64,000 nt of DNA from an uncultured Gammaproteobacteria bacterium (GCA_964448705.1 CAYUZS010000003.1:73384-137383); one strand, 5' to 3'; shown: positions 10,048-49,309, numbered from the stretch's first letter. Made by a program: numbers and translations. Notes: generated from the letters alone by a model not told the origin.

Positions 10048-10063
10048 ATTTTTTTAAATTTTA

Positions 10064-29003: not shown

Positions 29004-29660
29004 TTATTGGCTGTTTTGTAAACACTTTGACTTGTCCAGACTGTTTACAATTCCGTTGTTGTCATAATCGACATTATCTTTACAGCTTGTAGCTGATGAA
29101 GTAGTTGCCGGTGCTATAGTTCCACCGCCCCCTCTGACACAGATGATATAGTCTGCCGTATTTATTGCACCGTCTTTGTTATAGTCAGTTGTTTTATTGC
29201 AGCTTCCACTTTGAGTCGCTATAGCGGTTGGTGCTGCTGTCGGTGCCAAAGTTGCTGTCGGAGACGCACCTGCACCGGCTTTAAAGGTATAAGGAATCCC
29301 TCCATTATCAAAAACTTCTTCGCCTACTTTAATTCTAAAATAATAGCTTTGACCCGGTTTCAATGAATTTAAAACCACCGAGTGATTAACAGTTGATACC
29401 GTTTCCGGCACTGAAAGCAGTAATGCCGCTGAAGACGTTCCATATTGAACTACACTTTGAGCTTCTTTGTCTGTCGTCCAGGTTATAGTTGCCGATTTAC
29501 CATCTTCTGAAGGATTGGATACTACCCCTTTTGGTTCTGTATTGCCCGATGCTCCGCTCAGATATGTTCTTGCTGTTCCGACTCCCAAAACTCCCAAGAC
29601 ACCTACCAATATTAAAATCAGAATCGTAATAATTGTTTTTATTGATATTTTTTCTTTCAT
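29004..29660 (-). CDS. Secreted protein with FN3-like domain and C-terminal dockerin-like double EF-hand module
   Basis: A signal/TM segment is followed by a beta-rich FN3-like domain (WTTDKEAQSVVQYGTS...YYFRIK). The C-terminus carries DYNKDGAINTAD and DYDNNGIVNSLD, both matching the dockerin Ca-loop pattern DxNxDGxxNxxD. Confidence 0.5.
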   Translation of the reverse strand: MKEKISIKTIITILILILVGVLGVLGVGTARTYLSGASGNTEPKGVVSNPSEDGKSATITWTTDKEAQSVVQYGTSSAALLLSVPETVSTVNHSVVLNSLKPGQSYYFRIKVGEEVFDNGGIPYTFKAGAGASPTATLAPTAAPTAIATQSGSCNKTTDYNKDGAINTADYIICVRGGGGTIAPATTSSATSCKDNVDYDNNGIVNSLDKSKCLQNSQ

Positions 29661-30415
29661 TATGCAGATTTTAAATATAATGCCACAGACATTCCGCTGA
29701 TACCTAATAATACCAGAGCCAAAGTTTCCGCAATTCCTCCGGTTTCAGGTAGAGTTTCTGCCGTTGTATTGGCTGTAGTTGGTGTTGCAGACACTGTATT
29801 GTTAGTTGTGTTGTTTGTTGAAGTTGAAGTCGGGACCGGAGTTAAAGTTGGAGTCGAAGAGGGTGTAGTCGATGATGTTGTTGATGAAGTTATAGTGTAC
29901 GAACCGCTTTGATTCGATGAACAATCCACCACATCATTACCTGATTCATTAATAATATTAGTCTCAGCTACCGAACCGGCTTGACAGACATAATTTAAGG
30001 TCGCCGTCCCAGCTGCTTTTGCCTTAAAAGTAACTTTCAGAAGTTCATGTTTTGCTACCACTCCCACATAGACATTCGAGCTTAATGAAGGCAGTGTCAC
30101 TTCAAATGTTCCGGCAGCGTTATCGATAATCGGTGAACCTGTTGAGTATGTAAATTGATAGCCGTCATCAGGCACATCAGCTTTCACAATCGACACCACT
30201 TCCAGCTTTGAAGCATCAAATGTCGATTTGATATCCAGACCTATTACTTTATCAGCATTGGAATCAACTCCCAAAATTACGTCAAAAGTATCATTCACTT
30301 GTTTTGTCGCCGAAGTCGGATCCAAAGTAAAATGAGGCGCTGCCCAGGCTTTTACTGGAGTCACCGCCATTAAAGCGGCCGCCATCATTATTACTAATAA
30401 TCTTTTAGAATTCAT
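29660..30415 (-). CDS. Cell-wall-anchored surface protein: signal peptide, cohesin-like beta-sandwich domain, Thr-rich stalk, LPXTG sortase signal
   Basis: The C-terminal LPETGG is followed by a hydrophobic span and KSA, the classic sortase sorting signal. The core segment DVILGVDSNADKVIGLDIKSTFDASKLEVVSI resembles the cohesin consensus. Confidence 0.55.
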   Translation of the reverse strand: MNSKRLLVIMMAAALMAVTPVKAWAAPHFTLDPTSATKQVNDTFDVILGVDSNADKVIGLDIKSTFDASKLEVVSIVKADVPDDGYQFTYSTGSPIIDNAAGTFEVTLPSLSSNVYVGVVAKHELLKVTFKAKAAGTATLNYVCQAGSVAETNIINESGNDVVDCSSNQSGSYTITSSTTSSTTPSSTPTLTPVPTSTSTNNTTNNTVSATPTTANTTAETLPETGGIAETLALVLLGISGMSVALYLKSA

Positions 30416-31039
30416 TTATTTTGTCACCCTAACCGATAATTCATTACTTGAGAATGGCAAAACCTTGCTGGTTGCACTCTCTACAAACATAGTAGCAGAT
30501 TCTTTTGACTCATTGCCAGTACTTATTTTGAATGTAAAATCTCCCGATTTTAATGGCTTTACGGAAAAACTCATCAGGTTTAATTCATCATCCTTGTTTA
30601 CAGTTAAACCATCATCTTTAGAGATCAAAAATGTCGCTACTACTAATCCTTTTGTGTCACTGGCTTTACTAAAAACCGGTTCCGGCAAACGATCATCAAA
30701 AGTTAAACCGCTCACGGTAAAAGCCGAAGGATCATATTCCAGATAAACATTGATTGAATCCAAAGATCGATCCTCCTCTGCTTTTGCTTTAACTTCAATT
30801 TTTTCTGCTTTTCCTACAGTCATTTCCTCAGACGTTGCACCCAATTCAATCATATAAATCGGTTCAGTCGAAGTTGGTTTAACTCCTTCTGTTGGCGTAG
30901 AATTATCTACCACCTCACCTTTCCCGATTTTTACCTTGTTTATATTCAAGATCAACATCAGACTTTCTGCTAATACCAGAACTGCTATTACCGGAATAAC
31001 TTTTTTAACCCAATTTTTATTTTTATTGTTCATAATCAA
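30416..31039 (-). CDS. Secreted protein with cohesin-like segment (YLEYDPSAFTVSGLTF)
   Basis: An N-terminal TM/signal segment is present. The cohesin-like domain is supported only by beta-strand pattern similarity. Confidence 0.35.
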   Translation of the reverse strand: MIMNNKNKNWVKKVIPVIAVLVLAESLMLILNINKVKIGKGEVVDNSTPTEGVKPTSTEPIYMIELGATSEEMTVGKAEKIEVKAKAEEDRSLDSINVYLEYDPSAFTVSGLTFDDRLPEPVFSKASDTKGLVVATFLISKDDGLTVNKDDELNLMSFSVKPLKSGDFTFKISTGNESKESATMFVESATSKVLPFSSNELSVRVTK

Positions 31040-31053
31040 GTTTATTTAAACAT

Positions 31054-32277
31054 TTAATATAGCTGACTCTGTCTTTCACTTAACGATAACATCAGCAGAG
31101 ATAAATCCTGGGATTCCAGCTTACAGTTACCGTTCAAATCAGCTAACATATAACCACCTGTCCCAACTTCAGTTCTTTTAATCGATTCAGTCTTTACAAA
31201 AGAAAAGTCCAAACCGTCCACTACTCCATCTTGGCTTTCAGCAGTAGTGCCTGTCACATCGCCGGATAACAACGGATAACCGGTAAAATCAAAATTCTGG
31301 GTCGTCGCGGCGGAATTTGTCAGTCCGGATAATTCCCCTCCGGCTTTTTCGTAATAATCTGACTGATTATTAACTCCGTACTTCACTTGTAAATGTTTTG
31401 GACTCTTCACAAACACAGCCAAATTGTCGGTTGAATTGAAATTTCCCATATCTAATAAGATTTGGTAAACACCCAAACCATTTTTGTTTTCTTCTAGTTT
31501 ATTTGCAATCACATTTTCAAATACTTTGCTGGTGCCATTAGCTGCTCTTACTGTCACAGTTAAAGGCATATCCTGGGCGTCAGTACAATTATAATCAGCC
31601 CTCATTCCCAAAAAAGACATTTTGAATTTTAGTTGTAGACCTGTTTGCGTCGGTACCTGTGTTGGGGTCGGAGATAACGTCATTACTTGTGTTGGAGTCG
31701 GTGATGGTTGTTGTTCATTAACCAGATCCACAATTTCATAGCTTGTTCCCTCAACGCCTGTTACAGTGATATTTTTGTCGGTGTCACTCGCAGAGTTATC
31801 CCCTGTCATCATCGATTTTGTTTTATCAAGTTTTATTAGTCCCGAACCAAGACTGTTGCCTTTAAAAGTCATCGTCAAAGCTTTGCCTGTTGATAATAGT
31901 TGGTCTGCTGATCTCGATGAAGTTACCACTATCGTGGTACAAGTTTGGTCGGCGACATCGTTGGTTGCCATTATCGGACTGTCTCCAAACCCTGATTCAG
32001 TGTTGGGAACAACGCTTTCCAGGCTAATATTTTTTCCGTAACAAACTGTCGTCTGTACTCCGTCAACTTTAGAATCACTGGAAGTGTAATACCATAATTG
32101 TGTTTGGAAAGTACCTCCAACCACATCCCTGATCTTTGCCCCTGGTAAGACTTTCAAAGTTGAAGTGTCAAATGCCGCCCCTTTTCTCATCTCCTGATTT
32201 TGGTTTACCAAAACAAGACCTCCGACTAAAGCGCCTAAAATCAATAGTATTGGCAATATTATTTTCGTTTTTGTCAT
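31054..32277 (-). CDS. Secreted protein with C-terminal dockerin-like repeat
   Basis: A signal peptide and a PTPTQ linker are present. The C-terminal DLNGNCKLESQDLSLL matches a single dockerin Ca-binding repeat. Confidence 0.4.
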   Translation of the reverse strand: MTKTKIILPILLILGALVGGLVLVNQNQEMRKGAAFDTSTLKVLPGAKIRDVVGGTFQTQLWYYTSSDSKVDGVQTTVCYGKNISLESVVPNTESGFGDSPIMATNDVADQTCTTIVVTSSRSADQLLSTGKALTMTFKGNSLGSGLIKLDKTKSMMTGDNSASDTDKNITVTGVEGTSYEIVDLVNEQQPSPTPTQVMTLSPTPTQVPTQTGLQLKFKMSFLGMRADYNCTDAQDMPLTVTVRAANGTSKVFENVIANKLEENKNGLGVYQILLDMGNFNSTDNLAVFVKSPKHLQVKYGVNNQSDYYEKAGGELSGLTNSAATTQNFDFTGYPLLSGDVTGTTAESQDGVVDGLDFSFVKTESIKRTEVGTGGYMLADLNGNCKLESQDLSLLMLSLSERQSQLY

Positions 32278-32283
32278 TTATTT

Positions 32284-34269
32284 TTATAAACCATTTATAA
32301 AGTTTGTTCTCCAAATAGAGATATCATTTATTGTAATCAAACCATCACAGTCAAAATCTGCCCGCCAATCATTTCTATTAACTTCTCCCAGCTGTCCAGT
32401 AATGAATTCTGATCTCCAAATTGATGCATCATTAATGGTGATTGAACCACTGCAGTCAGCATTTCCTTTCCCTTTTGCCGTCGGATCATTGGCGCATTGA
32501 GTACATTTAAGTGGTAAAGCCGGACAGGCAGTCATATCTGTTGTCCAGGTACCGTTGGCTGATGGACAACAATATTGTCTGCCGCCGCAGGATGCTATTA
32601 GTTTTGCAGCACTACAAATTGTTTCATTAGCTGTACCGTCACTATCCGGAGGAGTGCAGCTTCGCAGGACACTTTGATTAAATCCGTTTGCATTAGTAAT
32701 TCCCGGACACTCTTCACGGCAGCTGTTTCCTGATCCTGTTGTTGGTGTTGCTGTTGGTGTTCTTCCGCCACCGGTTGTTGGTGTTGCGGTAGGTAATCTT
32801 ATTGAACCGCTAGTTGGAGTTAATGTTCTGGTTGGGGTTAATGTTCTGGTTGGACTTAATATTCTGGTTGGAGTTGGAGTATTACATGGATGGTCCAACA
32901 GATTTCCACAGCCTGTACCGGAATAATATCCACCAATGCATCTACAAGTTGCTGTCGGCACTGCAGTTACCGTAATTTGTCGACAACATATTCCTCCGGC
33001 AATTATTCCTGTTCTTTCATAGCCGGATCCGCAGTCAGAAATTCCGTATCGGGCCGTTGATCCGCTGGGACATGAACCTGCTAAAGTTGGAGTTGCTGTC
33101 GGTCTGCGTGTCGGAGTTGCTGTTGGTCTGGTTGTCAGAGTCGGAGTTCGTGGTATACAGCATCTTGAAGACGGAGAAGAACAATTGCTTTGTCCGACAT
33201 CAGTTTCTCCGCTGTTGCATGGTGTCCGACACACTCCAGTTGTGCCATTATACTGACAGTTATTCACCGGGGTTTGTTCACAACAAATTCCACCGGCAAT
33301 ATTTCCTGTCTTATCGTAACCCGAACCGCAATCGGAAATTCCGTATCGGGCTGTTGAACCGCTGGGACAAGCTGCTAAATTACAATCACCAGTGGAAGCG
33401 TTACACGAAGTGCTGCAGGTTTTCACAAATGTCCAAAATTTATTTGTCGACATATTGGCCTGGTTACAGTGATACAGATCATTTCCGGTGCATTTATAGG
33501 CATTTAGAGTACTACAAGCTGAAGAAGTTGGGGTCGGAGTTAAAGCTCTACAACAAATTCCCCCGGCAATTGTTCCTTCGTTTTTATATCCGGATCCGCA
33601 GTCTAGAATTCCGTATCGGGCTGTTGAACCGCTGGGACAAGCCGCTAAATTACAATCAGCTATTGAGGAATTACATGAAGTGCTGCAGGTTTTCACAAAT
33701 GTCCAGAATTTATTTGTCGACATGCTGGCTTGATTGCAGTGATAGAGGTCGTTTCCGGTACATTTATAGGTATTAACTGTACTACAAGCTGAAGAAGTTG
33801 GACCTGCCGTCGGTGCTCTGGTCGGAGTTAATGTTGCTGTTGCACAGCTGGAATCACTGACACAATTTGAAGCCGGACAAGCCGAACTGGAATTTATTGT
33901 TACTGTTGAGGAGTTACATTTCCCACTGCCGCAAGTTCTAACTGTACACTGTCTAGTTGCTGGAGTCGCTGTCGGGTTAACTACTGGCCTTTTACAAATA
34001 CAGGTGGCATAAGAACCGGAACCCGTACAGTCTTGCGGAGTAAATCCGGGACAACATGACAAACCGTTAGCATAAGTTCCACCCTCTGGGACACAGTAAG
34101 ACGCCAAATTTCTGGTATCCTGGTTATTTTGCACCAATTTTGTCGCTGCCGGAACCGCAATTGCCATCAGCAATAAGCCAATTAACAGAGGAATTTCTGC
34201 CAAACCTTTATTTTTCTTAAAAAAAACTGAAAACATTTTTTCTTGTAAAGAATGAGTCATTTTCGACAA
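32284..34269 (-). CDS. Large secreted Cys-rich repeat protein with Thr/Pro linkers and C-terminal dockerin-like module
   Basis: An N-terminal TM/signal segment is present. Two ~90-aa tandem Cys-rich repeats (KFWTFVKTCSTSCN...CPSGSTARYGI.DCGSGY...IAGGICC) are followed by a third partial copy. TPTRTLTPT linkers are present. The C-terminal NADCSGSITIND and DFDCDGLITIND are dockerin-like. Confidence 0.5.
   Translation of the reverse strand: MSKMTHSLQEKMFSVFFKKNKGLAEIPLLIGLLLMAIAVPAATKLVQNNQDTRNLASYCVPEGGTYANGLSCCPGFTPQDCTGSGSYATCICKRPVVNPTATPATRQCTVRTCGSGKCNSSTVTINSSSACPASNCVSDSSCATATLTPTRAPTAGPTSSACSTVNTYKCTGNDLYHCNQASMSTNKFWTFVKTCSTSCNSSIADCNLAACPSGSTARYGILDCGSGYKNEGTIAGGICCRALTPTPTSSACSTLNAYKCTGNDLYHCNQANMSTNKFWTFVKTCSTSCNASTGDCNLAACPSGSTARYGISDCGSGYDKTGNIAGGICCEQTPVNNCQYNGTTGVCRTPCNSGETDVGQSNCSSPSSRCCIPRTPTLTTRPTATPTRRPTATPTLAGSCPSGSTARYGISDCGSGYERTGIIAGGICCRQITVTAVPTATCRCIGGYYSGTGCGNLLDHPCNTPTPTRILSPTRTLTPTRTLTPTSGSIRLPTATPTTGGGRTPTATPTTGSGNSCREECPGITNANGFNQSVLRSCTPPDSDGTANETICSAAKLIASCGGRQYCCPSANGTWTTDMTACPALPLKCTQCANDPTAKGKGNADCSGSITINDASIWRSEFITGQLGEVNRNDWRADFDCDGLITINDISIWRTNFINGL
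33274..33795. repeat. Tandem ~270-nt intragenic repeat (2 copies) encoding the Cys-rich module
   Basis: The nucleotide segments 33274-33525 and 33526-33795 are near-identical, seen directly in the sequence. The spurious + strand ORF 33057-33776 is the antisense of this repeat. Confidence 0.6.
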
Positions 34270-34352: not shown

Positions 34353-35000
34353 TTACCGTACATTAAAAAATACCTCTCTTACCAGCAATTTTGTTACCAT
34401 TACCCCCGATTTTATTACTAACGAAATGTCATATTTAACACTTTTGTTTCGCACATAATTCATATCGCTTTTCATCCATTCCTCAAATTTCATCCGGTGA
34501 TAGCCTTCCACTACCCAGGGAGAAACTATCCCCGGCATAACCTTTTCCCTTTCTTTCCGATACTTATCCTCAATTTTCTTCTCTTCCCCTACCGGCAATG
34601 GTCTCGGTCCGATAAAAGACATTTCTCCGCCTAAAATATTAAACAACTGCGGCAGTTCATCCAAACCGGTGTGAAATAGAAATCTTCCGATTTTGGTAAG
34701 TCTGGGATCATTGTGAATTTTAAAAACCGGACCGTCAGCTTCGTTCAGATAAGCATAATCCACTTGTTGTTTATCCGCCCCTTTTCTCATTGTCCTGAAT
34801 TTATACATTTTAAAAATTCTTCCTTTCCAACCGACTCTTTTCTGAATATATAAAATCGGCCGCCCTTCACCTATTAATAGTATTAATGACAAAATAACAA
34901 TTACCGGCAATAATATGATTATCAAAACCAGTGCCAAAAACCTTTCTATTTTCATTTTTCTTTCCTTCCTTCTTATCTTACCAATCTTTGGCAAATCCAT
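34353..35000 (-). CDS. Undecaprenyl-phosphate sugar phosphotransferase (bacterial sugar transferase, WbaP/EpsL C-terminal type)
   Basis: RVGWKGRIFKMYKFRTM and DELPQLFNILGGEMSFIGPRP are present. The likely true start is the Met at 34955. Confidence 0.8.
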   Translation of the reverse strand: MDLPKIGKIRRKERKMKIERFLALVLIIILLPVIVILSLILLIGEGRPILYIQKRVGWKGRIFKMYKFRTMRKGADKQQVDYAYLNEADGPVFKIHNDPRLTKIGRFLFHTGLDELPQLFNILGGEMSFIGPRPLPVGEEKKIEDKYRKEREKVMPGIVSPWVVEGYHRMKFEEWMKSDMNYVRNKSVKYDISLVIKSGVMVTKLLVREVFFNVR

Positions 35001-36186
35001 TGATTACCAAGAGTCGATCATTTTTTACGGCCTGCCTTTTTTCTTCTTTCTGAATATTATTCCTCAACTTAAAACTTTTCGTCTTTCTCGTTTGTCTGTT
35101 TTTGTTCAAATTACTCTGATTATCCTGTATATTATTTCTGCCATTTTATCTTTCAATCCCGGATATTCCTATTATTCATTTTTTATTTTTCTTACTGTCC
35201 TGTCCATTCTCAACCTCTCTTTCGTTTATATTCAGGATTTTGATATTTTCTACCGATTCATTATCATTTTTTCCTGTTTCTACTCCCTTATTTTTATCCT
35301 TTCCAGGAATGGAATTATTTCCCTACTTCCCAAAATTAGTAATGATAATTTTATTCTCCAAAACTGGGGTCATAGTTACCTGGCTGATTTTCTAATTTTC
35401 CCCATCATTATTCTTATTTCTAAAATTAGTAAAAATAATTTCAAATACTTTCTACCTTTAGTTGTTTTTCTGTCAACTTCTTTAATCCTCACCAATTCCC
35501 GTTCTGTTCTGGTAGCCGTTATTTTGGGAATACTTTTTCTATCCCCCAAAAACAAACTTTATTCGCATTTAAAAGAAGTTACCTTAATTTGTTTAGTCTT
35601 CGGTCTTGTTTATATCTTTCAACACAAAGATCCTACCAGTTATCGTTTCACTTATTGGCAGCAGGCCATCGTCAATTTTCAAGAATCGCCTTTGTGGGGC
35701 AAAGGCCCGGAAACTTTCAATGCTTTTAATACCAGATATGCCCACAATTCCGTTTTGGAATATCTTTCCGGCAATGGTCTTATTTTCACCTTTATTTTTT
35801 GCCTATCCGTTCTCTCGGGTCTTGTCCGCCAATATCGAAAAAATAATCTTCTTTTTTGCCTCGGTCTGGCTGCATTTATTAATTCTCTTCTTGGTTCCTC
35901 TTGGTCCTCTCCGGGAATTCTTGTCATCAGCCTGATATTTTTATTTCATGGCGGTCATCCATCAAATCGATTCAAGCAAAGCCCTGTTTTTTTAACCGTT
36001 TTATCAGTTTTGATTTTCCTTTTCTTTCTCTCTAAAACTTCTTCTGACTATTTTTTTCTCCAAAAGAATTATTCTCTTAGTTTGAAACTCGATCCGTTTA
36101 ATCTCAATTCTCTTTTAATGACTCCCGACTCTCCCAACCTTCAAAGGTTTTATCCCCACCGACAGAAATTTTATTTCGTTCCCTAG
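34915..36186 (+). CDS. O-antigen ligase/polymerase (Wzy)-like polytopic membrane protein
   Basis: It has more than 10 TM helices. The periplasmic loop WGKGPETFNAFNTRYAHNSVLEYL matches the Wzy_C/O-antigen ligase motif. The 5' end overlaps the divergent neighbour, so the start is uncertain. Confidence 0.5.
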   Translation: MIIKTSAKNLSIFIFLSFLLILPIFGKSIDYQESIIFYGLPFFFFLNIIPQLKTFRLSRLSVFVQITLIILYIISAILSFNPGYSYYSFFIFLTVLSILNLSFVYIQDFDIFYRFIIIFSCFYSLIFILSRNGIISLLPKISNDNFILQNWGHSYLADFLIFPIIILISKISKNNFKYFLPLVVFLSTSLILTNSRSVLVAVILGILFLSPKNKLYSHLKEVTLICLVFGLVYIFQHKDPTSYRFTYWQQAIVNFQESPLWGKGPETFNAFNTRYAHNSVLEYLSGNGLIFTFIFCLSVLSGLVRQYRKNNLLFCLGLAAFINSLLGSSWSSPGILVISLIFLFHGGHPSNRFKQSPVFLTVLSVLIFLFFLSKTSSDYFFLQKNYSLSLKLDPFNLNSLLMTPDSPNLQRFYPHRQKFYFVP

Positions 36187-36194
36187 TAAAACAA

Positions 36195-37481
36195 ATGAAG
36201 CTTAAAATCACTTCCCGTAAATCCCAACTCTACCTCTTTGTAATTATCGAAATAATTTTTCTTGTTCTCTGTATTTTTGTTAAAAAACCACTAATTACCA
36301 CCACTCCTTTCGAATATGATGAACCGGATTATGTGGCAAATTCAATCCTTCTGAGCCACTTTCGACAATATCACCCCGACGACATCTATTGGTCCCAAAT
36401 AATTGCTTACGATCAGCCCCATCTGTATCACTATCTCTGTGGTTTGTTTTTGGAAAATACATATCATCAGCCGATTGATCAGATTCTTAAAAATAATGAT
36501 TTATTCAATAGCCCAGGAAATCCGTTTCTGGGCATTGGCAAAAAAGTCGACGGAAAATCTTTGGACGATCCGTTCATCCAAACCCATGAAAAAGCCTTTC
36601 GGGTTATCCTCTCTGCGCGCACTTTATCTTTCATCTTCTATTTCCTAACCGGTACAATTTTAATTTCTATTTTTTATTGCCTGAAAATTATTGGATTCAG
36701 CCCCTTGCTGTTGGTTATTCTTTTATCACCATATGTATTTTCCACCTCTATTTATGCCATTTCAGACGGACTGCTTCTCTTAACAATTTCCCTATCTACT
36801 CTTCTCTCGATTCTTTATCTCCGGTATCCTAAAAAACACTTCCTATTTATAGTTTTACTTGGAATTAGCTGCGGCCTGGCTCTTTCTACCAAGCTCAACG
36901 GCGGCCTGACTATCTTCACCGGACTTTTGGCAATTATAGTCTCAATCAAATCTTCCAAAAACATTAAAATTCATATTCTGGATACATTTATTTTATTAAC
37001 TACATCACTTTCTGTTTTTATTTTTCTGAATCCTTTCCTCTATATCAACACTTTTCAAAATATTATTCATATTTTTCAATACAGAATGTATGTTGGGGAT
37101 ATAAATAGTGTAATGCTTCCCGAAGAAGCCTTACCCGGCAGTTACCTCAACAAATTTATATTTTTTTCAAAAAGGATCTATTCCATAGTTGGTCTTTCCC
37201 CCACCACATCATTTCTTCTTATCATTTTTTCCATTTTTGCATCCCTCTACATTATCTGTTTCTACGCTTTCAATAGAATAAACAGCCTTCACCGCCCCAA
37301 ACTAAATTTACTTCTCAGTTCCCTCCTTACTTTTACTATTGTTTTTCTTTATATCCCCATGGATTGGCAGCGATATTATCTTCCGGCTCTAATTTCTAAT
37401 GTTTTCCTATTAGCCCTTGATCTTTATTTTTTAATAAAAATTTTTGGAAAAAGATTTTTACTAAAAACCATCCGATCCTAA
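36195..37481 (+). CDS. Polytopic membrane protein, possible GT-C-type glycosyltransferase
   Basis: It has many TM helices. Family assignment rests on context only. Confidence 0.3.
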   Translation: MKLKITSRKSQLYLFVIIEIIFLVLCIFVKKPLITTTPFEYDEPDYVANSILLSHFRQYHPDDIYWSQIIAYDQPHLYHYLCGLFLENTYHQPIDQILKNNDLFNSPGNPFLGIGKKVDGKSLDDPFIQTHEKAFRVILSARTLSFIFYFLTGTILISIFYCLKIIGFSPLLLVILLSPYVFSTSIYAISDGLLLLTISLSTLLSILYLRYPKKHFLFIVLLGISCGLALSTKLNGGLTIFTGLLAIIVSIKSSKNIKIHILDTFILLTTSLSVFIFLNPFLYINTFQNIIHIFQYRMYVGDINSVMLPEEALPGSYLNKFIFFSKRIYSIVGLSPTTSFLLIIFSIFASLYIICFYAFNRINSLHRPKLNLLLSSLLTFTIVFLYIPMDWQRYYLPALISNVFLLALDLYFLIKIFGKRFLLKTIRS

Positions 37482-38115
37482 GATACCTTTTTCCCAATCT
37501 TTCTGGCTCCTCTAGCAATCTAAACAGCCATTCACCTCCGTTATTTCTAATCCACTTGGGTGCCTGTCTCTTGTTTCCGCTCAAAAAATCAAACGCCGCC
37601 CCCACTGTCACATAAGTATTGTTAGGAATTTCCCTAAACAGTCTATCCGCCATTTCAATTTGTTTTTTAGCGCCTAAACCAATCCAGACAATCTTTTTGT
37701 TTCTGTCTTTTAACTCCCGAACTATTTTTCGATAATCTTTCTCCTCAAATTTTTCTTTATATGGCATCACCACATATTCCCCAAACTTGGAAAAATAATC
37801 CTTGTTTTTTATATCTCCGATAAATACATTATTTTTCCACCCGCTTTCCAAAACAGCTTTCATCAAATCAGGGCCGTAAACTCTTTCTGCTTTTTTATTT
37901 GTTTTTCTTAAAGCCCAAACCAAAGGCACTCCGTCTGCAGTTAATAAGTTTCCTTTTTCCAATATATTCTTAATATTTTTATCTTTCTCCGCCATCATCA
38001 TCTCATTTAAAGTACAGCAATACACTACCCCCTTGTTCTCAAGCATCCATTCTCTGGTTTCCATTAAACTCAAACTACTTATATCCAACCCTAAAATGTT
38101 AACTTTATTCTTCAC
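37396..38115 (-). CDS. WecB/TagA/CpsF-family glycosyltransferase
   Basis: The family pattern is present: ILGLDISSLSLMETREWM...LLTADGVPLVWA...IGLGAKKQIEMA...GAAFDFLSGNKRQAPKWIRNNGGEWLFRL. Confidence 0.75.
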   Translation of the reverse strand: MKNKVNILGLDISSLSLMETREWMLENKGVVYCCTLNEMMMAEKDKNIKNILEKGNLLTADGVPLVWALRKTNKKAERVYGPDLMKAVLESGWKNNVFIGDIKNKDYFSKFGEYVVMPYKEKFEEKDYRKIVRELKDRNKKIVWIGLGAKKQIEMADRLFREIPNNTYVTVGAAFDFLSGNKRQAPKWIRNNGGEWLFRLLEEPERLGKRYLRIGWFLVKIFFQKFLLKNKDQGLIGKH

Positions 38116-39215
38116 TCTGGAATCAAATTCTTAATTTGTTTTGTAAAAATTGCCTCCGAAAATTTATTCGCCGACTTTCTACACTCGCCTTCACTAATCT
38201 TCAGTCTGTCTAATCTTTTCATGGCCTCAAACAAACCATCTTCCGTATAATTAGAAAACAAAACACCATTCTTTCCATCATCAACAGTTTCTTTAACTCC
38301 ACCGGAGTTATAAGCCACCACTGGAATTCCTGTTTTTAATGCCTCTACCGGCACTATTCCAAAATCCTCATCCTTTGAAGCAAATAACAAAGCTTTGGCC
38401 TGACTCATAATCTCTAGTTTTCTTTTTTCCTCGCAATTTCCAACAAATTTTATCGTTTCTCCGGCTGCCTTTTGAAGTTTTTGACTCTCATCGCCATCCC
38501 CCACCACCACCAATGAAATTTTATTTTTACTGCAGGTTTTCACTGCCAAATCAATTCCCTTTTGTTTTACTAATCGGGAAAGACAAACATAATAATCTTT
38601 TCTCTCGCCGGCTTCCCCAATACTCTTAACTTCCACCGGTGGGTATACTATTTCAGCTTTTCGTCGGTAATATCTTTTAATTCTCTGTTGTACATTTCTG
38701 GAATTTGCAACTACTATATCAGCTCTTTTTGATCCATTTTTATCTATTGCCCTTAATATCTCTTTTATCGGCCAAAATAAATATTTCCAGACTCCTGATC
38801 TTATCCAGTTTATTTCATTGAATTCTTCGTATAAATATCGTGGTGGTGTATGGATATAAGATAAGTGAAAGGCCCCTTTTCTTTTTTTTACATTTTTCGA
38901 CATAAATGAGTGTGATGAAGAAATCACTAGATCATAATCCTGTAAATTTAGAAACTCCCAATAAATCCAAGAAAAAATTTTAATTACTGAAATATATTTA
39001 CTAACTTTATTTTTATGAATCAATCCTTGAAAAACGGAAGTATAAATTCTAATTGCCGGATATTTTTTCTCGATTTTTTGTCTGGCTGCCGGAACTATAA
39101 ACAATGTATAAACATCTGCTTTTGGATAAATTTTCAAAAAACTGTCAATCACTTTTTCAGCCCCGCCAAATTCCATAATTATATCCGATATTATCGCCAC
39201 CTTCTTTTTCTTCAT
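38112..39215 (-). CDS. Glycosyltransferase family 4
   Basis: The C-terminal GT-B motif FASKDEDFGIVPVEALKTGIPVVAYNSGGVKE (E-x7-E) is present. Confidence 0.8.
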   Translation of the reverse strand: MKKKKVAIISDIIMEFGGAEKVIDSFLKIYPKADVYTLFIVPAARQKIEKKYPAIRIYTSVFQGLIHKNKVSKYISVIKIFSWIYWEFLNLQDYDLVISSSHSFMSKNVKKRKGAFHLSYIHTPPRYLYEEFNEINWIRSGVWKYLFWPIKEILRAIDKNGSKRADIVVANSRNVQQRIKRYYRRKAEIVYPPVEVKSIGEAGERKDYYVCLSRLVKQKGIDLAVKTCSKNKISLVVVGDGDESQKLQKAAGETIKFVGNCEEKRKLEIMSQAKALLFASKDEDFGIVPVEALKTGIPVVAYNSGGVKETVDDGKNGVLFSNYTEDGLFEAMKRLDRLKISEGECRKSANKFSEAIFTKQIKNLIPE

Positions 39216-39240
39216 CTTACTAATTATAATCTACTCAGAC

Positions 39241-40323
39241 ATGGAAACCTCTCCAAAAAAAATTTTCGTTGTATTTAATAGTCTAAACATTGGCGGTATC
39301 GAAACTAAAATTGTCGACCTATGTCGCTACTACTCTAAACAAAAAGATATTCAACTCACTCTCCTCCTTAAACAAAAAACCGGTCCTTTAATCTCTAAAA
39401 TACCCCCAAACATTACCATCATTTCCCCGTTAAACTCGTCACCGGTCTATTTTCCTTTATGGTTGTCAATTCAGTTTTTTTATTCTCATCCCCAATTGGT
39501 CGTTTCTTTTGGCAACTATTCTTCAATTTGTACCATTTTCAGCAAACTATTTTTCAACCCCGGCATTAAAGTAATTATCAGTGAAGACTCCAGTATTATT
39601 GAACAAATTGATTCCGACACTTTTCCCGGATTAAGAAGGTTACTGGTCAAAATAACCTATCCTCTGGCCAACCTGATTATTACCCTCACCAAAGCAGGGA
39701 AAAATAAATTAGTAAAACTTGTCCCCAATACAAAAAACAAAACCATTATTCTCAACAACTGGTTACCTCTTAGTTTCAAATCTACGGGCATTTCCAAAAA
39801 AGATATTGATATTTTATATATAGGCCGTTTTGAACCCCAAAAAAACCCTTTAGCCTTCTTAATTATTTCCAAAAATCTGATAAAAACCATTCCCGGGATT
39901 AAAATTGTTATGATTGGACAGGGATCCCTCCGGACAATTATTCAGGAATTTATAATCAAAAATAAATTGGTCAAAAATATTTCCTTACTCCCGGCAACCA
40001 CCCATCCGGAAAAATTCTATCAACGTTCTAAAATCCTCCTCCTCACCTCCCGGCATGAAGGTTTCCCGTTAACCATTCTCGAAGCCATTTCCGGTTACTG
40101 TCTCCCGGTTTGCCGTCAACTCCGGGAATTAGACAATTTTTTTAATTATAAAAAAAAGAGTTTACTATTTAATTCATCTCAATCAGCAATTGATCTGATC
40201 AACCGACTCTTCTCCAGCCCGGAGCTCCGCAAAGACTTGATTCATCATTATTGGAAAAAAGTTATCAAACAGCAAAACCTTAACTTCAATAAAACTTTAA
40301 CAGTTTTTTCTAAGTACCTATGA
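39241..40323 (+). CDS. Glycosyltransferase family 4
   Basis: RHEGFPLTILEAISGYCLPV is a GT4 motif. Confidence 0.75.
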   Translation: METSPKKIFVVFNSLNIGGIETKIVDLCRYYSKQKDIQLTLLLKQKTGPLISKIPPNITIISPLNSSPVYFPLWLSIQFFYSHPQLVVSFGNYSSICTIFSKLFFNPGIKVIISEDSSIIEQIDSDTFPGLRRLLVKITYPLANLIITLTKAGKNKLVKLVPNTKNKTIILNNWLPLSFKSTGISKKDIDILYIGRFEPQKNPLAFLIISKNLIKTIPGIKIVMIGQGSLRTIIQEFIIKNKLVKNISLLPATTHPEKFYQRSKILLLTSRHEGFPLTILEAISGYCLPVCRQLRELDNFFNYKKKSLLFNSSQSAIDLINRLFSSPELRKDLIHHYWKKVIKQQNLNFNKTLTVFSKYL

Positions 40324-41420
40324 AGCCAAAAAAAATAATGATTGTCTTTTTCGATATGGCACTCGGCGGTATTCAAAGAAAGATTCTCGACATCATTAAC
40401 CACCTTCACAACCATTATTCGAATATTCAAATTACCTTATGTTTAATCGAAAAAAAAGGTATTTTTATTGATCGTATTCCAGATTATGTCAAAATAAAAA
40501 AGCCTCCATTTAGAACTCCCATTCTTTACTTACCTTGGTTTACCTTGTGGATTACCAAGGAAATTATCAGTAATAAGCCGGATTATATTTTACCGTTTAT
40601 GGATGTCAGTGCTGTTGCCGTCCTGGCCGCCAAACAACTTCTGTTTTGGAAAAAACCTCTTGTCTGTATCGGTGAAGACATCCTCACTTCAAAATACTTA
40701 CTCACCGAATCACAGCCCGATCTTCGTCGAAAAATGATTCGTTATTTTTATCCAAAATCCGACAAAATTTTAGTTCAAACACCCGTCCAGAAAGCTGATC
40801 TTATCGATATTGTCGGACAAAACATCGCCGACAAAATAATCGTTTCCCCAAATTGGCTGCCTCTGGAATTTCCACCCCAAAAATTACCTCCGCGTTCTGA
40901 TCGCTCAATTGACATTCTTTATCTTGGCCGTTTTGATTCCCAAAAAAACCTTTCTTTATTTATCACCATTATTTCCCAACTTCAGCACAGCATTCCCCGT
41001 CTTAAAGCTGTATTAGTCGGTAGTGGACACGAAACCAGAAAACTCAAGAGGCTTACCAAACATCTGGGACTTTCTAAAAATATCCAATTTTTCCCCGCCA
41101 CCACAGATCCTACCTCTTTCTATACCCAATCTAAAATATTTCTTCTTACCTCAGATTATGAAGGCTTTCCTCTTACCCTTCTGGAAGCCATCTCCTGTGG
41201 TTGCATTCCAATTTCCAGAAATTTATCCGAAATAAAACAATTTTTTAACCAGGATTCCAAGCATTATTTGTTTTCCAATCCCGACGAAGCCGCGGTTCTC
41301 CTCAACTACACTCTCACTCATCCACCCAAACCTTCGTTGAAACTTTATTATCAGCGAATCCTCACACTTCAGAACAAATATCTGCATCTCTATGTTAAAC
41401 ATCTCCTTTTTAAAAAATGA
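40320..41420 (+). CDS. Glycosyltransferase family 4 (paralog of preceding gene)
   Basis: DYEGFPLTLLEAISCGCIPIS is a GT4 motif. The domain order matches the 39241-40323 gene. Confidence 0.75.
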   Translation: MKPKKIMIVFFDMALGGIQRKILDIINHLHNHYSNIQITLCLIEKKGIFIDRIPDYVKIKKPPFRTPILYLPWFTLWITKEIISNKPDYILPFMDVSAVAVLAAKQLLFWKKPLVCIGEDILTSKYLLTESQPDLRRKMIRYFYPKSDKILVQTPVQKADLIDIVGQNIADKIIVSPNWLPLEFPPQKLPPRSDRSIDILYLGRFDSQKNLSLFITIISQLQHSIPRLKAVLVGSGHETRKLKRLTKHLGLSKNIQFFPATTDPTSFYTQSKIFLLTSDYEGFPLTLLEAISCGCIPISRNLSEIKQFFNQDSKHYLFSNPDEAAVLLNYTLTHPPKPSLKLYYQRILTLQNKYLHLYVKHLLFKK

Positions 41421-43297
41421 AGTTATCTTCATCGCTCACAGTCGCAGTTATCACCTGTCGTCGTCCCAAACTTCTTAAACGTTGTCTTTTTAGTTTTTTA
41501 AAACAAAAAACTGCTTTAAGAATTATTATTATTGACAACGATTATCAACAGACTTCAAAAAAAATTTGTCAATCATTCTCAAAAAAGCTGTCTTTAAAAT
41601 ACTTGGTCTGTCCGATAAAAAGTATCCCCAGGGCAAGAAGTTTAGCCATTGAATCCTGTGAAACTAATTATTTGGCTTTTATCGACGACGATTGCTGTAT
41701 CGATCGTCACTGGTCAGAAATTGCCCGGGAACTCATTTCCGCCAATCCAAACACCGCCTATTGGCAGGGACAAACTTATCCTCCCGCCAAACCTTCCTTG
41801 CTTGATTCTGCCCATTTCCAAATCTATTCCCAATGGCTGCTTCATCCCCACCAGGGATTGGATACAAAAAATATCATTATTAATTTATCTGTGGTCAAAA
41901 AATATCATCTTTCTTTTGACCCCAACTTTCCAATCTTTGAGGATATAGATTTTGGCCTTCAACTGAATCAGCATCATCTTTCCGGAATGTTTATCCCTAA
42001 ATTAATAGTCAGCCACCATGAATATATAAAATTGTTCCCATTAATCCGAAAATATTTTTATCGCGGTCAAATCAAATTTGCTATCAATCAAAAATGGGGC
42101 AATTTTGATAACTATCAGCCTACTCTCGACTTCTTTACCATCATTAAAAAATTAGCTACCAACTTTTTCAAAGCACTTCTGGAAATTTCATTTGACTCTG
42201 GTTTCAAATATGCCCAAAAGTATCAGATTCTTCCCAACGACAACCATCTTTCTATAATAAATCGCCATGACCGGGGAGCCAACCAAGAACGCCTTGAAGC
42301 CATAACTAATTTTCTCCACAAAAACAATTTTCAGGTAACCAATATTGATTCGGAAAAAATTCTTCTCGATTGCCAATTGCATCGACGTCAGTTCTTAAAA
42401 GAAAATCCCCTAGCCTACCTATTAATTCATTTATCTCTACTTAATAATCCACCTTTCAGATATTTTTTTAGCCTACTTCTTCGCGGTTATCTTCTCAATT
42501 TTTATCTTCATCGTTTGCATACCAAAAAAGTAATTTCTCAATATTCCGAAGACATTTTTGTCGCCATATATCCACACCGCTTTCAACTTATCCTTGATTT
42601 ACCGACCATTTTTTCTGAAGAATTAAAACTCAGTCACCGGCTGCCTCTACCGATTATTAATATAATAACCCGTCTGGAAAACCTCGCCTATTCCAAAGCC
42701 GATCATACTTGCTTCCATTGGTCCGGCTTTCTTAATTATGCACGTAAAATTGGAAAAAAAATTCCAAACAGTTTTATCCTCAACTGGGGGTGTAATTCAG
42801 TTTCAAAAGTAGCTGTATTTAAAAAACATCCCAAAATAATTTATCTTGGCGATTTTACTTCACCTTGGACCAATCCCTCATTACTACTCAGACTGCAGAA
42901 AACATCTTCTATCGACATTTTTAGCTATCAAACTTCATCCAAATTTAAAACCAAAGGCTATTTAAAAAATCTCCAAAAACTCAGCCTTTATCAATTTGGT
43001 CTAATAACTATCACCAATGATCCGCTCAGAAACAATGGTTTTTCTGCCAAGTACTTAAAATATCTTGAGCATGGTCTACCGGTTCTTTGCCCTGAATGGC
43101 GTCGGGATCCCCTGCTAAAACCAGCCACCATTTACTATAATGAAAGAAATTTTGTCAAACAGCTTAAAAAATATTCTCAAAAAAAACTTTGGTTAAAAAA
43201 ACACCAAGCTGCCCTAAGAATTTCCAAAAATTTAAATTGGAACAAAACTCTACTTCCATTGTTACCGAAAATTAATTCATCTAAAAATGAATATTAG
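41417..43297 (+). CDS. Glycosyltransferase family 2 with large C-terminal extension of unknown function
   Basis: The N-terminus (VAVITCRRPKLLKRCL...IIIDND...AFIDDDC) is a GT-A fold with a DxD motif. The ~350-aa C-terminal region is unassigned. Confidence 0.6.
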   Translation: MKLSSSLTVAVITCRRPKLLKRCLFSFLKQKTALRIIIIDNDYQQTSKKICQSFSKKLSLKYLVCPIKSIPRARSLAIESCETNYLAFIDDDCCIDRHWSEIARELISANPNTAYWQGQTYPPAKPSLLDSAHFQIYSQWLLHPHQGLDTKNIIINLSVVKKYHLSFDPNFPIFEDIDFGLQLNQHHLSGMFIPKLIVSHHEYIKLFPLIRKYFYRGQIKFAINQKWGNFDNYQPTLDFFTIIKKLATNFFKALLEISFDSGFKYAQKYQILPNDNHLSIINRHDRGANQERLEAITNFLHKNNFQVTNIDSEKILLDCQLHRRQFLKENPLAYLLIHLSLLNNPPFRYFFSLLLRGYLLNFYLHRLHTKKVISQYSEDIFVAIYPHRFQLILDLPTIFSEELKLSHRLPLPIINIITRLENLAYSKADHTCFHWSGFLNYARKIGKKIPNSFILNWGCNSVSKVAVFKKHPKIIYLGDFTSPWTNPSLLLRLQKTSSIDIFSYQTSSKFKTKGYLKNLQKLSLYQFGLITITNDPLRNNGFSAKYLKYLEHGLPVLCPEWRRDPLLKPATIYYNERNFVKQLKKYSQKKLWLKKHQAALRISKNLNWNKTLLPLLPKINSSKNEY

Positions 43298-44360: not shown

Positions 44361-45015
44361 TTCCTACTCCCGGATCCTCTAATATCTCGAATAGTTTGTA
44401 TTTTCCTGAGTCTTTAATTTCTTTCCAAAATTTTCTGGTTCCATAAAAGTTTCCATCCTTGTCCGGACTTCCGATATCATGGATCGCCAAAAATCCGCCT
44501 TTTTCCACATTCTGCCAGAACATTTCAAAATCTTTTTTCACCCCTGTATAAGAATGGTCGCCGTCAATATGAACGTAACCATATTTTATTTTTTCATTTT
44601 TTGCGTAATATTCATCTGATTTCATCACCCTCAATTTTATATACTTCTCCAAACCAAATTTTCCAAAATGTTTTTTTTCATCTACCTTCTTCCAAAAACC
44701 AACTCCTCCCCAATGTTCTCCAGCAACTTTATCATAATCATCCATATCAAATCCGGCATCAACAAAATCAACTAAACCCATCCCGTTATCTTTGCACGCC
44801 AAAGCGCATACGGCCGGAATATATCCGTATTTACTGCCAACACATAGTACCTTATCCGGTCTGATTTGCCTAATCAGTGAATAATGGATCCAGCCATAAC
44901 CTAAACCTCCCCGATTGTTATCCCAGTGATGCCAATTGTCATCTTTTGCATAATTCTCAATAAATTTCCTGACATTTTTCTTATCTATTAAATCTTTTGT
45001 CCCGCTGAATATCAT
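44344..45015 (-). CDS. Class I SAM-dependent methyltransferase (TylF/CmcI-like)
   Basis: VLCVGSKYG and the C-terminal YVHIDGDHSYTGVKKDFEMF...GGFLAIHD fit a macrocin-O-MTase-like fold. Confidence 0.55.
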   Translation of the reverse strand: MIFSGTKDLIDKKNVRKFIENYAKDDNWHHWDNNRGGLGYGWIHYSLIRQIRPDKVLCVGSKYGYIPAVCALACKDNGMGLVDFVDAGFDMDDYDKVAGEHWGGVGFWKKVDEKKHFGKFGLEKYIKLRVMKSDEYYAKNEKIKYGYVHIDGDHSYTGVKKDFEMFWQNVEKGGFLAIHDIGSPDKDGNFYGTRKFWKEIKDSGKYKLFEILEDPGVGIIQKD

Positions 45016-45041
45016 TCTCCATTATAATACTATCATTCTCT

Positions 45042-49186: not shown

Positions 49187-49201
49187 GTTTTCCCATCCTT
49201 T

Positions 49202-49309
49202 TTATCTCGCACAAGCACAGGACGCACAGACACATGATCCATCGGGACACTGTTTGGGTGTTTCTCCACCACATGCCAAAACAGAATTTAAAGAAATCAC
49301 TTTAATCAT
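49202..49309 (-). CDS. Unannotated 35-aa Cys-rich small peptide MIKVISLNSVLACGGETPKQCPDGSCVCASCACAR (candidate RiPP precursor)
   Basis: I found this by manual translation of the minus strand. It is absent from the ORF track because it is under 60 aa. It has six Cys in the C-terminal 23 residues after a hydrophobic leader-like N-terminus. It ends 15 nt upstream of the PqqD-like gene start. Confidence 0.4.
   Translation of the reverse strand: MIKVISLNSVLACGGETPKQCPDGSCVCASCACAR

Follow-up and report, generated by a model that had tools for sequence, protein, structure and literature searches.

A five-gene cluster from a small-genome bacterium predicted to encode a non-enzymatic cohesin-dockerin surface assembly with a Cys-rich cargo protein

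In Clostridium thermocellum, the X module and type II dockerin at the C-terminus of the scaffoldin CipA (CohI9-X-DocII) bind the wall-anchored type II cohesins of SdbA and OlpB, thus attaching to the wall a protein whose nine cohesins and family 3 carbohydrate-binding module (CBM3) organise dozens of enzymes. Anchoring in Ruminococcus flavefaciens relies on a single cohesin: the X module-dockerin (X-Doc) dyads of ScaB and of CttA, a non-enzymatic binding protein displayed via the ScaE anchor, have been shown experimentally to bind the one cohesin of ScaE, a protein that sortase fixes to the wall by a covalent bond at its LPXTG signal (PMC5301203). Here we describe a cluster of five genes, p1 to p5, on the minus strand at positions 29004-34269 of a 64,000-nucleotide stretch of DNA (the window; coordinates are counted from its first letter), which as a whole we read as encoding, probably, a self-contained, non-enzymatic cohesin-dockerin surface assembly that displays a Cys-rich protein.

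The locus resembles both systems in architecture. Like ScaE, p2 has a single cohesin and an LPXTG signal for covalent wall attachment by sortase; like ScaB and CttA, p4 ends in an X-Doc dyad with an insertion in the dockerin; and p1-p5 are clustered, as are the sca genes (PMC5301203). The C-terminus of CipA has the same order of cohesin, X module and dockerin as p4, and the role of its X-Doc, attaching a scaffoldin to a wall-bound cohesin, is the one we propose for that of p4. By contrast, sequence identity to the R. flavefaciens system is only 12-20%, and the single cohesin of p4, a protein of 407 aa, compares with up to nine in ScaB and with the nine cohesins and CBM3 of CipA. CipA is anchored via SLH-domain proteins, whereas the signal here is LPXTG. 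The cluster has neither dockerin-bearing enzymes nor carbohydrate-binding modules (CBMs), its cargo being an uncharacterised Cys-rich protein, and it adds a membrane-anchored cohesin protein (p3) and an FN3-dockerin protein (p1). Finally, R. flavefaciens is a fibrolytic Firmicute, whereas the host here is a bacterium of the candidate phyla radiation (CPR) with a genome of ~1 Mb.

Cohesin and dockerin modules are not confined to cellulosomes. According to Peer et al. 2009, as cited in PMC9012536, non-cellulosomal modules are found in each of the three domains of life; for ANME consortia, a possible role in mediating cell-cell contact has been discussed (PMC9012536). Those of Archaeoglobus fulgidus (2xdh), the glycosidase cohesins of Clostridium perfringens and those of ANME belong to organisms not known as cellulose degraders, come typically as one or a few per protein and have been proposed as surface-protein tethers; 2xdh, 2vo8, 2jh2 and 2w1n, all non-cellulosomal cohesins, are among the structural matches of our p2 and p4 models. 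Such modules are scattered elsewhere, whereas here they form a closed set of three cohesins and three dockerins in one syntenic block with a sortase anchor and an X-Doc, a miniature scaffoldin hierarchy. A report from a related organism comes from Bell et al. (bioRxiv 2021.08.21.457207; ISME J 2022, PMC9123182), who found that a metagenome-assembled genome (MAG) of Candidatus Shapirobacterales produced proteins bearing type I/II cohesins and type III dockerins and interpreted these as a cellulosome. Of 12 proteins detected for this MAG by metaproteomics (Dataset S6), six carry a cohesin or dockerin annotation, and three of these six come from consecutive genes (k141_22004_38, _39 and _40). Spectral counts for cohesin/dockerin proteins of 45, 39 and 27 lie just under that of GroEL (65), so proteins of this kind are abundant in situ in a related organism; they are likely orthologous to the products of p1-p5. 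The report of Bell et al. consists of one sentence and a table and touches on neither the cluster of genes nor its LPXTG anchor, X-Doc, Cys-rich cargo and pairings; our literature search found no published description of the architecture of the cluster or of its anchor, X-Doc and cargo. The kinds of module are known, and it is their arrangement in a CPR bacterium that is new: the closed set, the ScaE-like anchor, the X-Doc adaptor and the display of a hypervariable Cys-rich protein.

The sequence-only reading had proposed five minus-strand genes for secreted proteins at 29004-34269, and these ORFs (open reading frames) are indeed present, each encoding a hydrophobic N-terminal segment; a clear Sec signal peptide with an A-x-A site (…KAWA/AP) is found only in p2. 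The genes are tightly packed, with 6 nt between p5 and p4, 14 nt between p4 and p3, none between p3 and p2 and a 1-nt overlap of p2 and p1, and a scan of the minus strand revealed no terminator-like site between them, from which we infer that they are co-transcribed as one operon-like unit. Promoter-like matches around p1-p5 were not above chance in a corresponding scan. A regular-expression scan for Ca loops and LPxTG motifs, which covered the 150 ORFs with 80 aa or more obtained by six-frame translation of the window, found dockerin-type loops in p1 (DYNKDGAINTAD and DYDNNGIVNSLD, the two DxNxDGxxNxxD-type loops already recognised in the sequence-only reading) and in p5 (NADCSGSITIND and DFDCDGLITIND), with none in ORFs outside the cluster, and LPxTG only in p2 and one unrelated short ORF. 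That reading was right about the presence of cohesin and dockerin modules, as well as about the cohesin-like segment and LPETGG signal of p2, but its tally of one cohesin and three dockerins fell short: the cluster encodes three cohesins (p2, p3 and the N-terminus of p4) and three distinct types of dockerin (p1, the C-terminus of p4, and p5), and an X module in p4 had been missed. It had also undercounted the loops in p4 and p5, which both hold two repeats (p5 having a further NADCSGSITIND at residue 603, and loop 1 of p4 an insertion). That the five genes encode the modules named here is, in our judgement, close to certain.

The best-defined cohesin is that of p2 (gene 29660-30415, minus strand; 251 aa), which consists of the Sec signal peptide, a cohesin (29888-30334; residues ~28-176), a Ser/Thr/Pro/Asn linker and an LPETG sorting signal. 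It passes the Pfam Cohesin model (PF00963) with 33.2 bits against a gathering score of 24.1. An AlphaFold2 (AF2) model built with 26 homologues has a predicted local distance difference test (pLDDT) score above 90 over residues ~30-180, and in a Foldseek comparison with the PDB its first 39 matches are all cohesins, the best being 6kgf_C (E 1e-9, TM-score to target 0.72); structures of R. flavefaciens ScaE also match (2zf9, E 3e-7; 4iu3_A, E 8e-6). The sequence profile of the p2 family has no match among PDB sequences, so the family is distant from characterised cohesins and a comparison of folds was needed. For both p2 and residues 35-184 of p4, this comparison supports the nine-stranded beta-sandwich of cohesins, since the leading PDB matches are almost all cohesins with TM-scores to target of 0.6-0.77.

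The sorting signal of p2 (29663-29752, minus strand) comprises LPETG at residues 222-226, a hydrophobic helix (228-250 in the model) and K249 near the C-terminus, so that with the Sec signal the layout of a sortase substrate is complete. L222, P223, T225 and G226 are invariant among the 26 homologues, and several homologues carry a precomputed match to PF00746 (Gram_pos_anchor), while p2 of the window scores 10.2 on TIGR01167, below the cut-off of 15.9. No sortase is encoded in the window, as had been noted from the sequence, judging by Pfam annotation of essentially all genes, a scan for TLxTC-type motifs and BLAST and phmmer searches with an approximate Staphylococcus aureus SrtA query, a single-sequence search being insensitive. 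The sortase family is reported to occur almost throughout the Microgenomates (PMC6744442), and one complete genome from this group has a sortase gene (PMC7143001). Given the conserved LPxTG signal, wall anchoring of p2 in the source genome is thus plausible.

The second cohesin belongs to p4 (31054-32277, minus strand), in which an N-terminal hydrophobic helix is followed by a cohesin (31726-32175; residues ~35-184), a Thr/Pro linker, an X module (31264-31650; residues ~210-338) and a dockerin (31057-31263; residues 339-407). The AF2 model, built with 47 homologues, has a mean pLDDT of 87.6 and shows a helix (7-26), a beta-sandwich (37-183; pLDDT of the cohesin 89-98), a disordered Thr/Pro linker (188-207), a beta domain directly before the dockerin (215-330; pLDDT of the X module >90) and two helices (355-367 and 389-406). 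Its top four Foldseek matches in the PDB are the cohesin 9-X module-type II dockerin fragment of C. thermocellum CipA (4fl4_C, E 6e-12; 3kcp_A, E 2.7e-11; ~380 aligned columns), with whose X module that of p4 aligns in order, and these are followed by ~40 single cohesins with TM-scores to target of 0.6-0.75, the archaeal non-cellulosomal 2xdh included. The Pfam Cohesin model does not match the N-terminal domain in the window copy and matches one orthologue at 1.5e-3. In the dockerin, loop 1 (D340…D357) contains a 7-residue insertion and loop 2 reads D380-L-N-G-N-C-K-L-E-S-Q-D391; the dockerin is therefore asymmetric in the window copy, whereas loop 1 is canonical in the L023 and L007 orthologues. 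The X module lies immediately N-terminal to this C-terminal dockerin, forming the X-Doc dyad, and it is kept in every orthologue of p4, including fusion proteins that lack the cohesin. Since its best structural matches are the CipA cohesin-X-dockerin fragment and then single cohesins, p4 is, as modelled, a one-cohesin adaptor scaffoldin.

The same model bears on the idea that the locus encodes a pilus or fibre, either as a relative of the Pam pili of CPR bacteria or as a sortase-polymerised pilus with p2 as its pilin. Pam pili, CPR-specific structures described in Saccharimonadia and Microgenomatia, are made of secreted multi-domain beta-sandwich proteins from one operon (Troman et al. 2026 preprint); their two-domain pilins, in which a linker strand joins a nine-strand beta-sandwich at the N-terminus to a truncated Ig-like C-domain, are superficially like p4, whose model also has weaker matches to Gram-positive major pilins (3rkp_B, 5e-6; 6ixy_B, 6.5e-6), and p2 has its LPXTG. 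However, Pam pili are built by donor-strand exchange with PapD-like chaperones, have neither cohesin-dockerin modules nor LPXTG and lie in another gene neighbourhood, p4 being compared with them by description only. The donated linker is the most conserved part of a Pam pilin, whereas the linker of p4 (~185-209) is its least conserved part, varies in length, hosts insertions and has a pLDDT below 50. The second domain of p4 is modelled as a complete fold with pLDDT >90 and is followed by a dockerin, a module not reported in Pam pilins. Nor does the cluster have an ATP-synthase neighbourhood or a PapD-like chaperone with a C-terminal transmembrane (TM) helix: family searches found no PapD/FimC-like chaperone among p1-p5, all of which are cohesin or dockerin proteins. 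On these properties of linker, second domain, dockerin and operon content we reject p4 as a Pam pilin. As to a sortase-polymerised pilus, p2 lacks a YPKN-type pilin motif and no locus has an adjacent class C sortase, and we reject this version as well. We give a pilus or fibre of any kind a very small chance.

The product of p3 (30416-31039, minus strand; 207 aa, or 205 aa with an alternative start) has an N-terminal TM helix and a cohesin (30425-30856; residues ~62-205) recognised by Pfam in orthologues and by a hidden Markov model (HMM) of the p4 cohesin. The window copy scores 19.4 bits on Pfam Cohesin, under the cut-off, and 9 of 18 orthologues match, the best at E 6.4e-8; the p4-cohesin HMM detects orthologues of p3 (1e-3 to 3e-6) and also those of p2. 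Judged by these profiles, p3 is probably a membrane-anchored cohesin protein. Its TM helix contains an invariant Glu-Ser pair (residues 25-26; 30962-30967). In the p4 and p5 families, the N-terminal helix leads into a further conserved motif, the box L-V-x-Q-N-Q-x-x-R-(R/K/N)-x-A (p4 ~20-36, 32170-32220, with A34 invariant in p4; p5 ~20-57, 34099-34212), and in p5 families G-L-A-(E/Q)-I-P-L-L precedes that helix. These motifs and the Glu-Ser pair may be processing or sorting signals or make intramembrane contacts.

Two proteins contribute a dockerin without a cohesin. The first, p1 (29004-29660, minus strand; 218 aa), starts with a hydrophobic segment and contains an FN3-like beta domain (29313-29534; residues ~43-116), a Thr/Pro linker and a C-terminal dockerin (29022-29201; residues 154-213). 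The beta domain matches Pur_ac_phosph_N (PF16656) with 44.2 bits (E 2.9e-11) and fn3 (E 7.5e-4); the former matches all 19 orthologues, and Pfam finds no phosphatase catalytic domain in p1. The two Ca-loop repeats of the dockerin are bracketed by C154/C174 and C193/C213, and in the alignment of 19 sequences these Cys and the loop residues are invariant or nearly so. Searching 1.84 billion representative proteins with the p1-type dockerin returned 47 matches, about two-thirds of them C-terminal in p1-like proteins of ~195-290 aa and some in multi-repeat Ca-binding proteins; by this count the p1-type dockerin appears nearly private to the p1 family.

The second, p5 (32284-34269, minus strand; 661 aa), has an N-terminal helix followed by the box, Cys-rich repeats with Thr/Pro linkers that bring the protein to 58 Cys, and a C-terminal dockerin (32287-32499; residues 591-661) made of two near-identical repeats, NADCSGSITINDASIWRSEF and DFDCDGLITINDISIWRTNF. 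These are 64% identical to each other in the window and 59% (median) in 24 orthologues, with the signature D-x-S-I-W-R; repeat symmetry can be measured reliably for the p5-type dockerin only. A profile of this type, which includes three Paenibacillus sequences, matches the solved dockerins 2y3n_B (1.5e-8) and 4fl4_A (3.6e-8). Conservation in p5 is limited to the N-terminal ~55 residues and the dockerin, the Cys-rich middle, which is probably disulfide-bonded, being unalignable even between close relatives. Across 22 Cys-rich proteins of the p5 type, no Pfam family other than Dockerin_1 or PT was detected. A CBM5/12 resemblance seen by eye (CBM_5_12, E 0.44) was discarded, as none of the 22 orthologues matches a CBM and there is no sequence match to a solved structure. 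Just before the dockerin, residues 513-586 (32512-32733) form a module of ~65 aa with eight Cys (…C..ECP…C.PPDSDGT….C…….CGG..YCCPS..G.WTT.M.AC), which recurs in 22 loci (including L010, L013, L017, L021, L031, L035-L040, L061, L062, L068 and L071), either at this same position or inserted in p4 orthologues. No Pfam family covers this uncharacterised module, whose behaviour is that of a mobile unit.

All three dockerins have the tandem ~22-residue EF-hand-like repeat (a 12-residue loop with D/N at positions 1, 3, 5, 9 and 12, then a helix): both loops are canonical in p1 and p5, and loop 2 is in p4. The sequence-only reading had suggested checking the modules against the Pfam models and predicted structures, and the outcome of the former was divided. 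While p2 lies above the Cohesin cut-off, the window copies of the dockerins lie below that of Dockerin_1 (PF00404; 22.9 bits), with 19.8 bits for p1, 18.5 bits for p4 and no match for p5, yet their orthologues do match: 15 of 19 for p1 (E <=0.01, best 1.8e-6), 9 of 15 for p4 (E <=0.01, best 1.1e-4) and 9 of 11 p5-type C-termini (E <=0.1, best 5.6e-8). The models agree with the assignments, a two-helix dockerin and a cohesin sandwich being seen in p4 and a cohesin fold in p2.

We compared the cluster across two sets of loci, 17 CPR loci from a scan of species-representative genomes and 65 loci from a metagenome scan seeded with the p5-type dockerin. BLAST and HMM mapping found the p4-p3-p2-p1 block in essentially all 17 genome loci, and the canonical order Cys-rich-dockerin, cohesin-X-Doc, p3, p2, p1 recurs in more than 25 independent metagenome loci. 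Four loci retrieved through p2 homologues (38-100% identical to the window) likewise encode one or more variable large proteins, a ~205-aa cohesin protein, a ~230-aa LPXTG cohesin protein and a ~220-aa FN3-dockerin protein, and in all four annotated flanks the block is followed downstream by S21-YqeY-YbeY-DnaX-RecR-CysS-S6-SSB-S18. The constant gene order across genome and metagenome loci suggests that the block is passed on vertically as a core trait of a Shapirobacteria/Microgenomates lineage and is not a mobile island. Variants occur in other CPR lineages (L047-L049 with L054; L063; L070; L078-L080) and include Coh-Coh-X-Doc (Coh, cohesin; Doc, dockerin), Coh-Doc adaptors without an X module, Coh-Coh-Doc and runs of as many as three p5-dockerin genes. 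In L047 the place of p3, p2 and p1 after the block is taken by a 420-aa ORF that resembles a GH18-like hydrolase by eye only. Outside the CPR, Paenibacillus chondroitinus and P. silvestris (L026 and L027; ~1-11000) encode three large proteins (at least 240 aa, ~1677 aa and ~1288 aa) that end in a p5-like dockerin (E ~1e-18), immediately upstream of a 340-aa cohesin protein. This is an analogous non-cellulosomal cohesin-dockerin cluster in Firmicutes that are in culture, and a possible experimental model.

A central question is which dockerin pairs with which cohesin, and the variation among loci offers clues. At ~29 non-redundant loci, the X-Doc protein has one cohesin and is preceded directly upstream by exactly one Cys-rich p5-dockerin gene, while lineages with extra cohesins (Coh-Coh-X-Doc, or added Coh-Doc adaptors) carry several such genes. 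In L087-L094, which have two p5-dockerin genes and at first seemed to be a counter-example lacking a cohesin in the X-Doc protein, a targeted search found two divergent cohesin-like segments in that protein (E 3e-5 and 0.02, the second being weak). Moreover, in L007/L008, L021 (two paralogues) and L024, a p5-type N-terminus and Cys-rich region are fused straight to an X-Doc, and these same loci have neither a p4-type cohesin (E >0.4 under permissive search settings) nor a p5-type dockerin. Since a covalent fusion here replaces the non-covalent pair and both modules are lost together, the dockerin of p5 would bind the cohesin of p4. For the X-Doc of p4, the analogy with the dyads of ScaB and CttA, which bind ScaE, argues for the cohesin of p2 as its partner. 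The dockerin of p1 would then be left to the cohesin of p3. Taken one by one, these pairings range from tentative to somewhat favoured, whereas the broader claim that the proteins assemble through cohesin-dockerin contacts into a wall-anchored complex is one we consider fairly likely.

The assembly could proceed as follows. In the best supported step, p2 would be secreted, cut at LPETG by an unlinked housekeeping sortase and joined covalently to peptidoglycan as the anchoring scaffoldin. The symmetric dockerin of the Cys-rich p5 would dock into the p4 cohesin, and the X-Doc dyad of p4 into the wall-bound cohesin of p2, so that a wall-p2-p4-p5 chain would hold a fast-evolving Cys-rich protein off the cell. 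The least supported step is a second, membrane-proximal link, formed by the dockerin of p1 and the membrane-anchored cohesin of p3. The p4 cohesin may also take dockerin-bearing hydrolases encoded elsewhere in the genome.

Several observations weigh against this reading of the locus. In L018, L020 and L023 the p4 cohesin is retained although no p5-type dockerin gene lies close by. The counts of co-occurrence lack phylogenetic independence, and the fusion argument comes down to two or three lineages. The L047-L049/L054 lineage has Coh-Coh-X-Doc and no p3, p2 or p1 downstream. No sortase was found in ~95 related loci. The p3 and p2 families match each other weakly in hhalign (probability 16%), and p1 is paired with p3 by elimination only. 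Taken singly, none of the window dockerins reaches the Pfam cut-off, and that of p5 is not detected at all. The N-terminal helices of four of the five proteins may keep them tethered to the membrane and so change the geometry. Finally, on metagenome contigs outside the core clusters, p5-type dockerins are found on a protein of the GH5 cellulase family (L067; its dockerin is 68% identical to that of the window), a DUF4434 protein (L046), GxGYxYP putative glycosidases (L074) and subtilases.

These last carriers bring in the main alternative, that the system is a minimal cellulosome-like display of enzymes, in which the p2-p4 scaffold would hold dockerin-bearing glycoside hydrolases or proteases encoded elsewhere (two subtilases are among the carriers) and p5 would be a substrate-binding subunit like CttA. 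Bell et al. did interpret the expressed Shapirobacterales proteins as a cellulosome, a GH39 gene adjoins the cluster in L007, and the architecture matches that of ScaE, ScaB and CttA. The sequence-only reading, too, had called the cluster cellulosome-style, which holds for the architecture but not for the content. In neither p1-p5 nor the 22 Cys-rich cargo orthologues did Pfam detect a catalytic or known carbohydrate-binding domain; p2, p3 and p4 have one cohesin each (two in some other lineages) and so none is a multi-cohesin, enzyme-integrating scaffoldin; and the cluster contains neither dockerins on carbohydrate-active enzymes nor a substrate-targeting CBM. We conclude that, lacking enzymes and CBMs and with single-cohesin scaffolds, the cluster is not a cellulosome as defined. 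The enzyme-bearing carriers all lie outside core clusters, on contigs whose genome of origin is unverified, and p5-type dockerins outside core clusters also accompany binding or repeat domains (FG-GAP, TSP1, beta-propeller and filamin). By contrast, in ~50 loci no enzyme or CBM lies in the cluster, and the gene adjoining p4 always encodes a Cys-rich protein. One cohesin per scaffold protein in the window does not allow the integration of several enzymes, the dockerin of p1 is of a type nearly exclusive to its own family, no dockerin-bearing enzyme is encoded in the 64-kb window, and the faint CBM_5_12 signal of p5 was not reproduced in its 22 orthologues. Enzyme display is thus an unlikely account of the cluster.

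A more sceptical view would deny that there is a specific complex at all: the five products would be independent surface proteins, with dockerin-like repeats as Ca2+-binding stabilisers and cohesin-like domains as generic Ig-like spacers. The low Pfam scores of the window dockerins would fit this, as would the Ca-binding repeat proteins among the matches of the p1 dockerin and the wide spread of non-cellulosomal modules of unknown function (Peer et al. 2009, as cited in PMC9012536). Yet cohesins and dockerins are kept in equal numbers in one syntenic block across the lineage, the number of p5-type dockerins goes with that of p4-type cohesins and the two modules disappear together when the cargo is fused to the X-Doc, and the combination of an X-Doc dyad with a single-cohesin LPXTG anchor mirrors a system in which binding has been proven experimentally. 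We hold it to be very improbable that the proteins act independently.

We return to the favoured reading, a wall-anchored, non-enzymatic assembly, and to what it might be for. Its most likely role is to display a variable binding protein with which the cell attaches to a host cell or particle, and scaffolding of enzymes is less likely; even so, a purpose in attachment or recognition, as opposed to the display of enzymes, is at best an evenly balanced proposition, and the attachment role put forward in the sequence-only reading was likewise inferred. To our knowledge, little has been established about how CPR bacteria (Patescibacteria) attach to hosts or particles beyond the type IV and Pam pili of Saccharimonadia. 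The cluster supplies a concrete, testable candidate attachment system for Shapirobacterales, composed of six small modules whose pairings are predicted, one covalent wall anchor and one hypervariable distal protein. It suggests that a complete scaffoldin hierarchy, with anchoring cohesin, X-Doc adaptor and cargo dockerin, is possible without enzymes in a genome of ~1 Mb, and it bears on the evolution of cohesin-dockerin systems and on the practice of taking cohesin and dockerin annotations in metagenomes as a sign of cellulose degradation. The natural fusions of Cys-rich regions to X-Doc and the multi-cohesin variants provide a comparative series for the study of specificity. A bolder version, which we regard as rather unlikely, takes the block to be the core apparatus by which Shapirobacterales attach, inherited vertically and expressed in abundance, in which a minimal, sortase-anchored wall-p2-p4 chain would serve solely to present p5 as a hypervariable, disulfide-rich tip that recognises the host cell. 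If this were true, the host specificity of these episymbionts would be determined by the fast replacement of Cys-rich modules, with shuffling between p5 and p4 as a part of it, and cohesin-dockerin pairing would be used for interspecies recognition and not for the assembly of enzymes.

The assignment to the CPR comes from homologues and from the surroundings of the cluster. Named homologues of p2 and p4 are from Candidatus Shapirobacteria, Woesebacteria or the Microgenomates group, and the label 'uncultured Gammaproteobacteria' on some third-party annotation (TPA) MAG records of homologues is obviously unreliable. The remaining genes of the window are housekeeping genes (gyrB/gyrA, dnaB, dnaX, recR, cysS, S6-SSB-S18, a release factor, hisS and topA), and its GC content is 38.5%; gene content and GC fit a small-genome CPR bacterium (Candidatus Shapirobacteria; CPR/Patescibacteria, Microgenomatia). 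GC skew is strongly negative across the window, at -0.2 to -0.38 in most 2-kb windows, and comes close to zero at one place only, at 32-34 kb, where p5 encodes its Thr/Pro/Cys-rich protein. For a genome of the Microgenomates, a marked disparity in strand composition is on record (PMC7143001).

A large locus for envelope glycosylation (34353-47956, both strands) sits directly upstream of p5 and encodes Bac_transf, Wzy_C, a PMT-family GT-C transferase (36195-37481; GT, glycosyltransferase), WecG, three GT4 enzymes, a 626-aa GT2, a radical S-adenosylmethionine (SAM) enzyme, a methyltransferase and an ABC-2 exporter. Similar neighbours are present in L004 and absent from L007. The Ser/Thr/Pro linkers of p1-p5 could be O-glycosylated, like those of cellulosomal proteins. 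A thioredoxin-fold protein is encoded at 292-1296 on the plus strand (VSR_TRX, E 8.9e-10; GILT; Thioredoxin_4); it is a candidate extracytoplasmic disulfide oxidoreductase and could be relevant to p5 with its 58 Cys and to the Cys-bracketed dockerin of p1.

At 47946-49345 on the minus strand, genes for a QueC-like PP-loop ATPase (322 aa) and a PqqD-family protein (91 aa) and a 47-aa ORF stand in a row and adjoin an M50 peptidase (L028, 14334-16849); they may be a small peptide-maturation set of the RiPP type (ribosomally synthesised and post-translationally modified peptides). On the plus strand, 57466-59694 encodes a 742-aa protein with weak matches to TrwB_AAD_bind and DUF8128, like a coupling-protein ATPase, followed by five tiny ORFs at 59700-60900, and 6869-7801 on the minus strand holds the gene of a phage-integrase-family tyrosine recombinase. 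The genes at 57466-60900 and the recombinase may be remnants of a mobile element, or the recombinase may be XerC/D.

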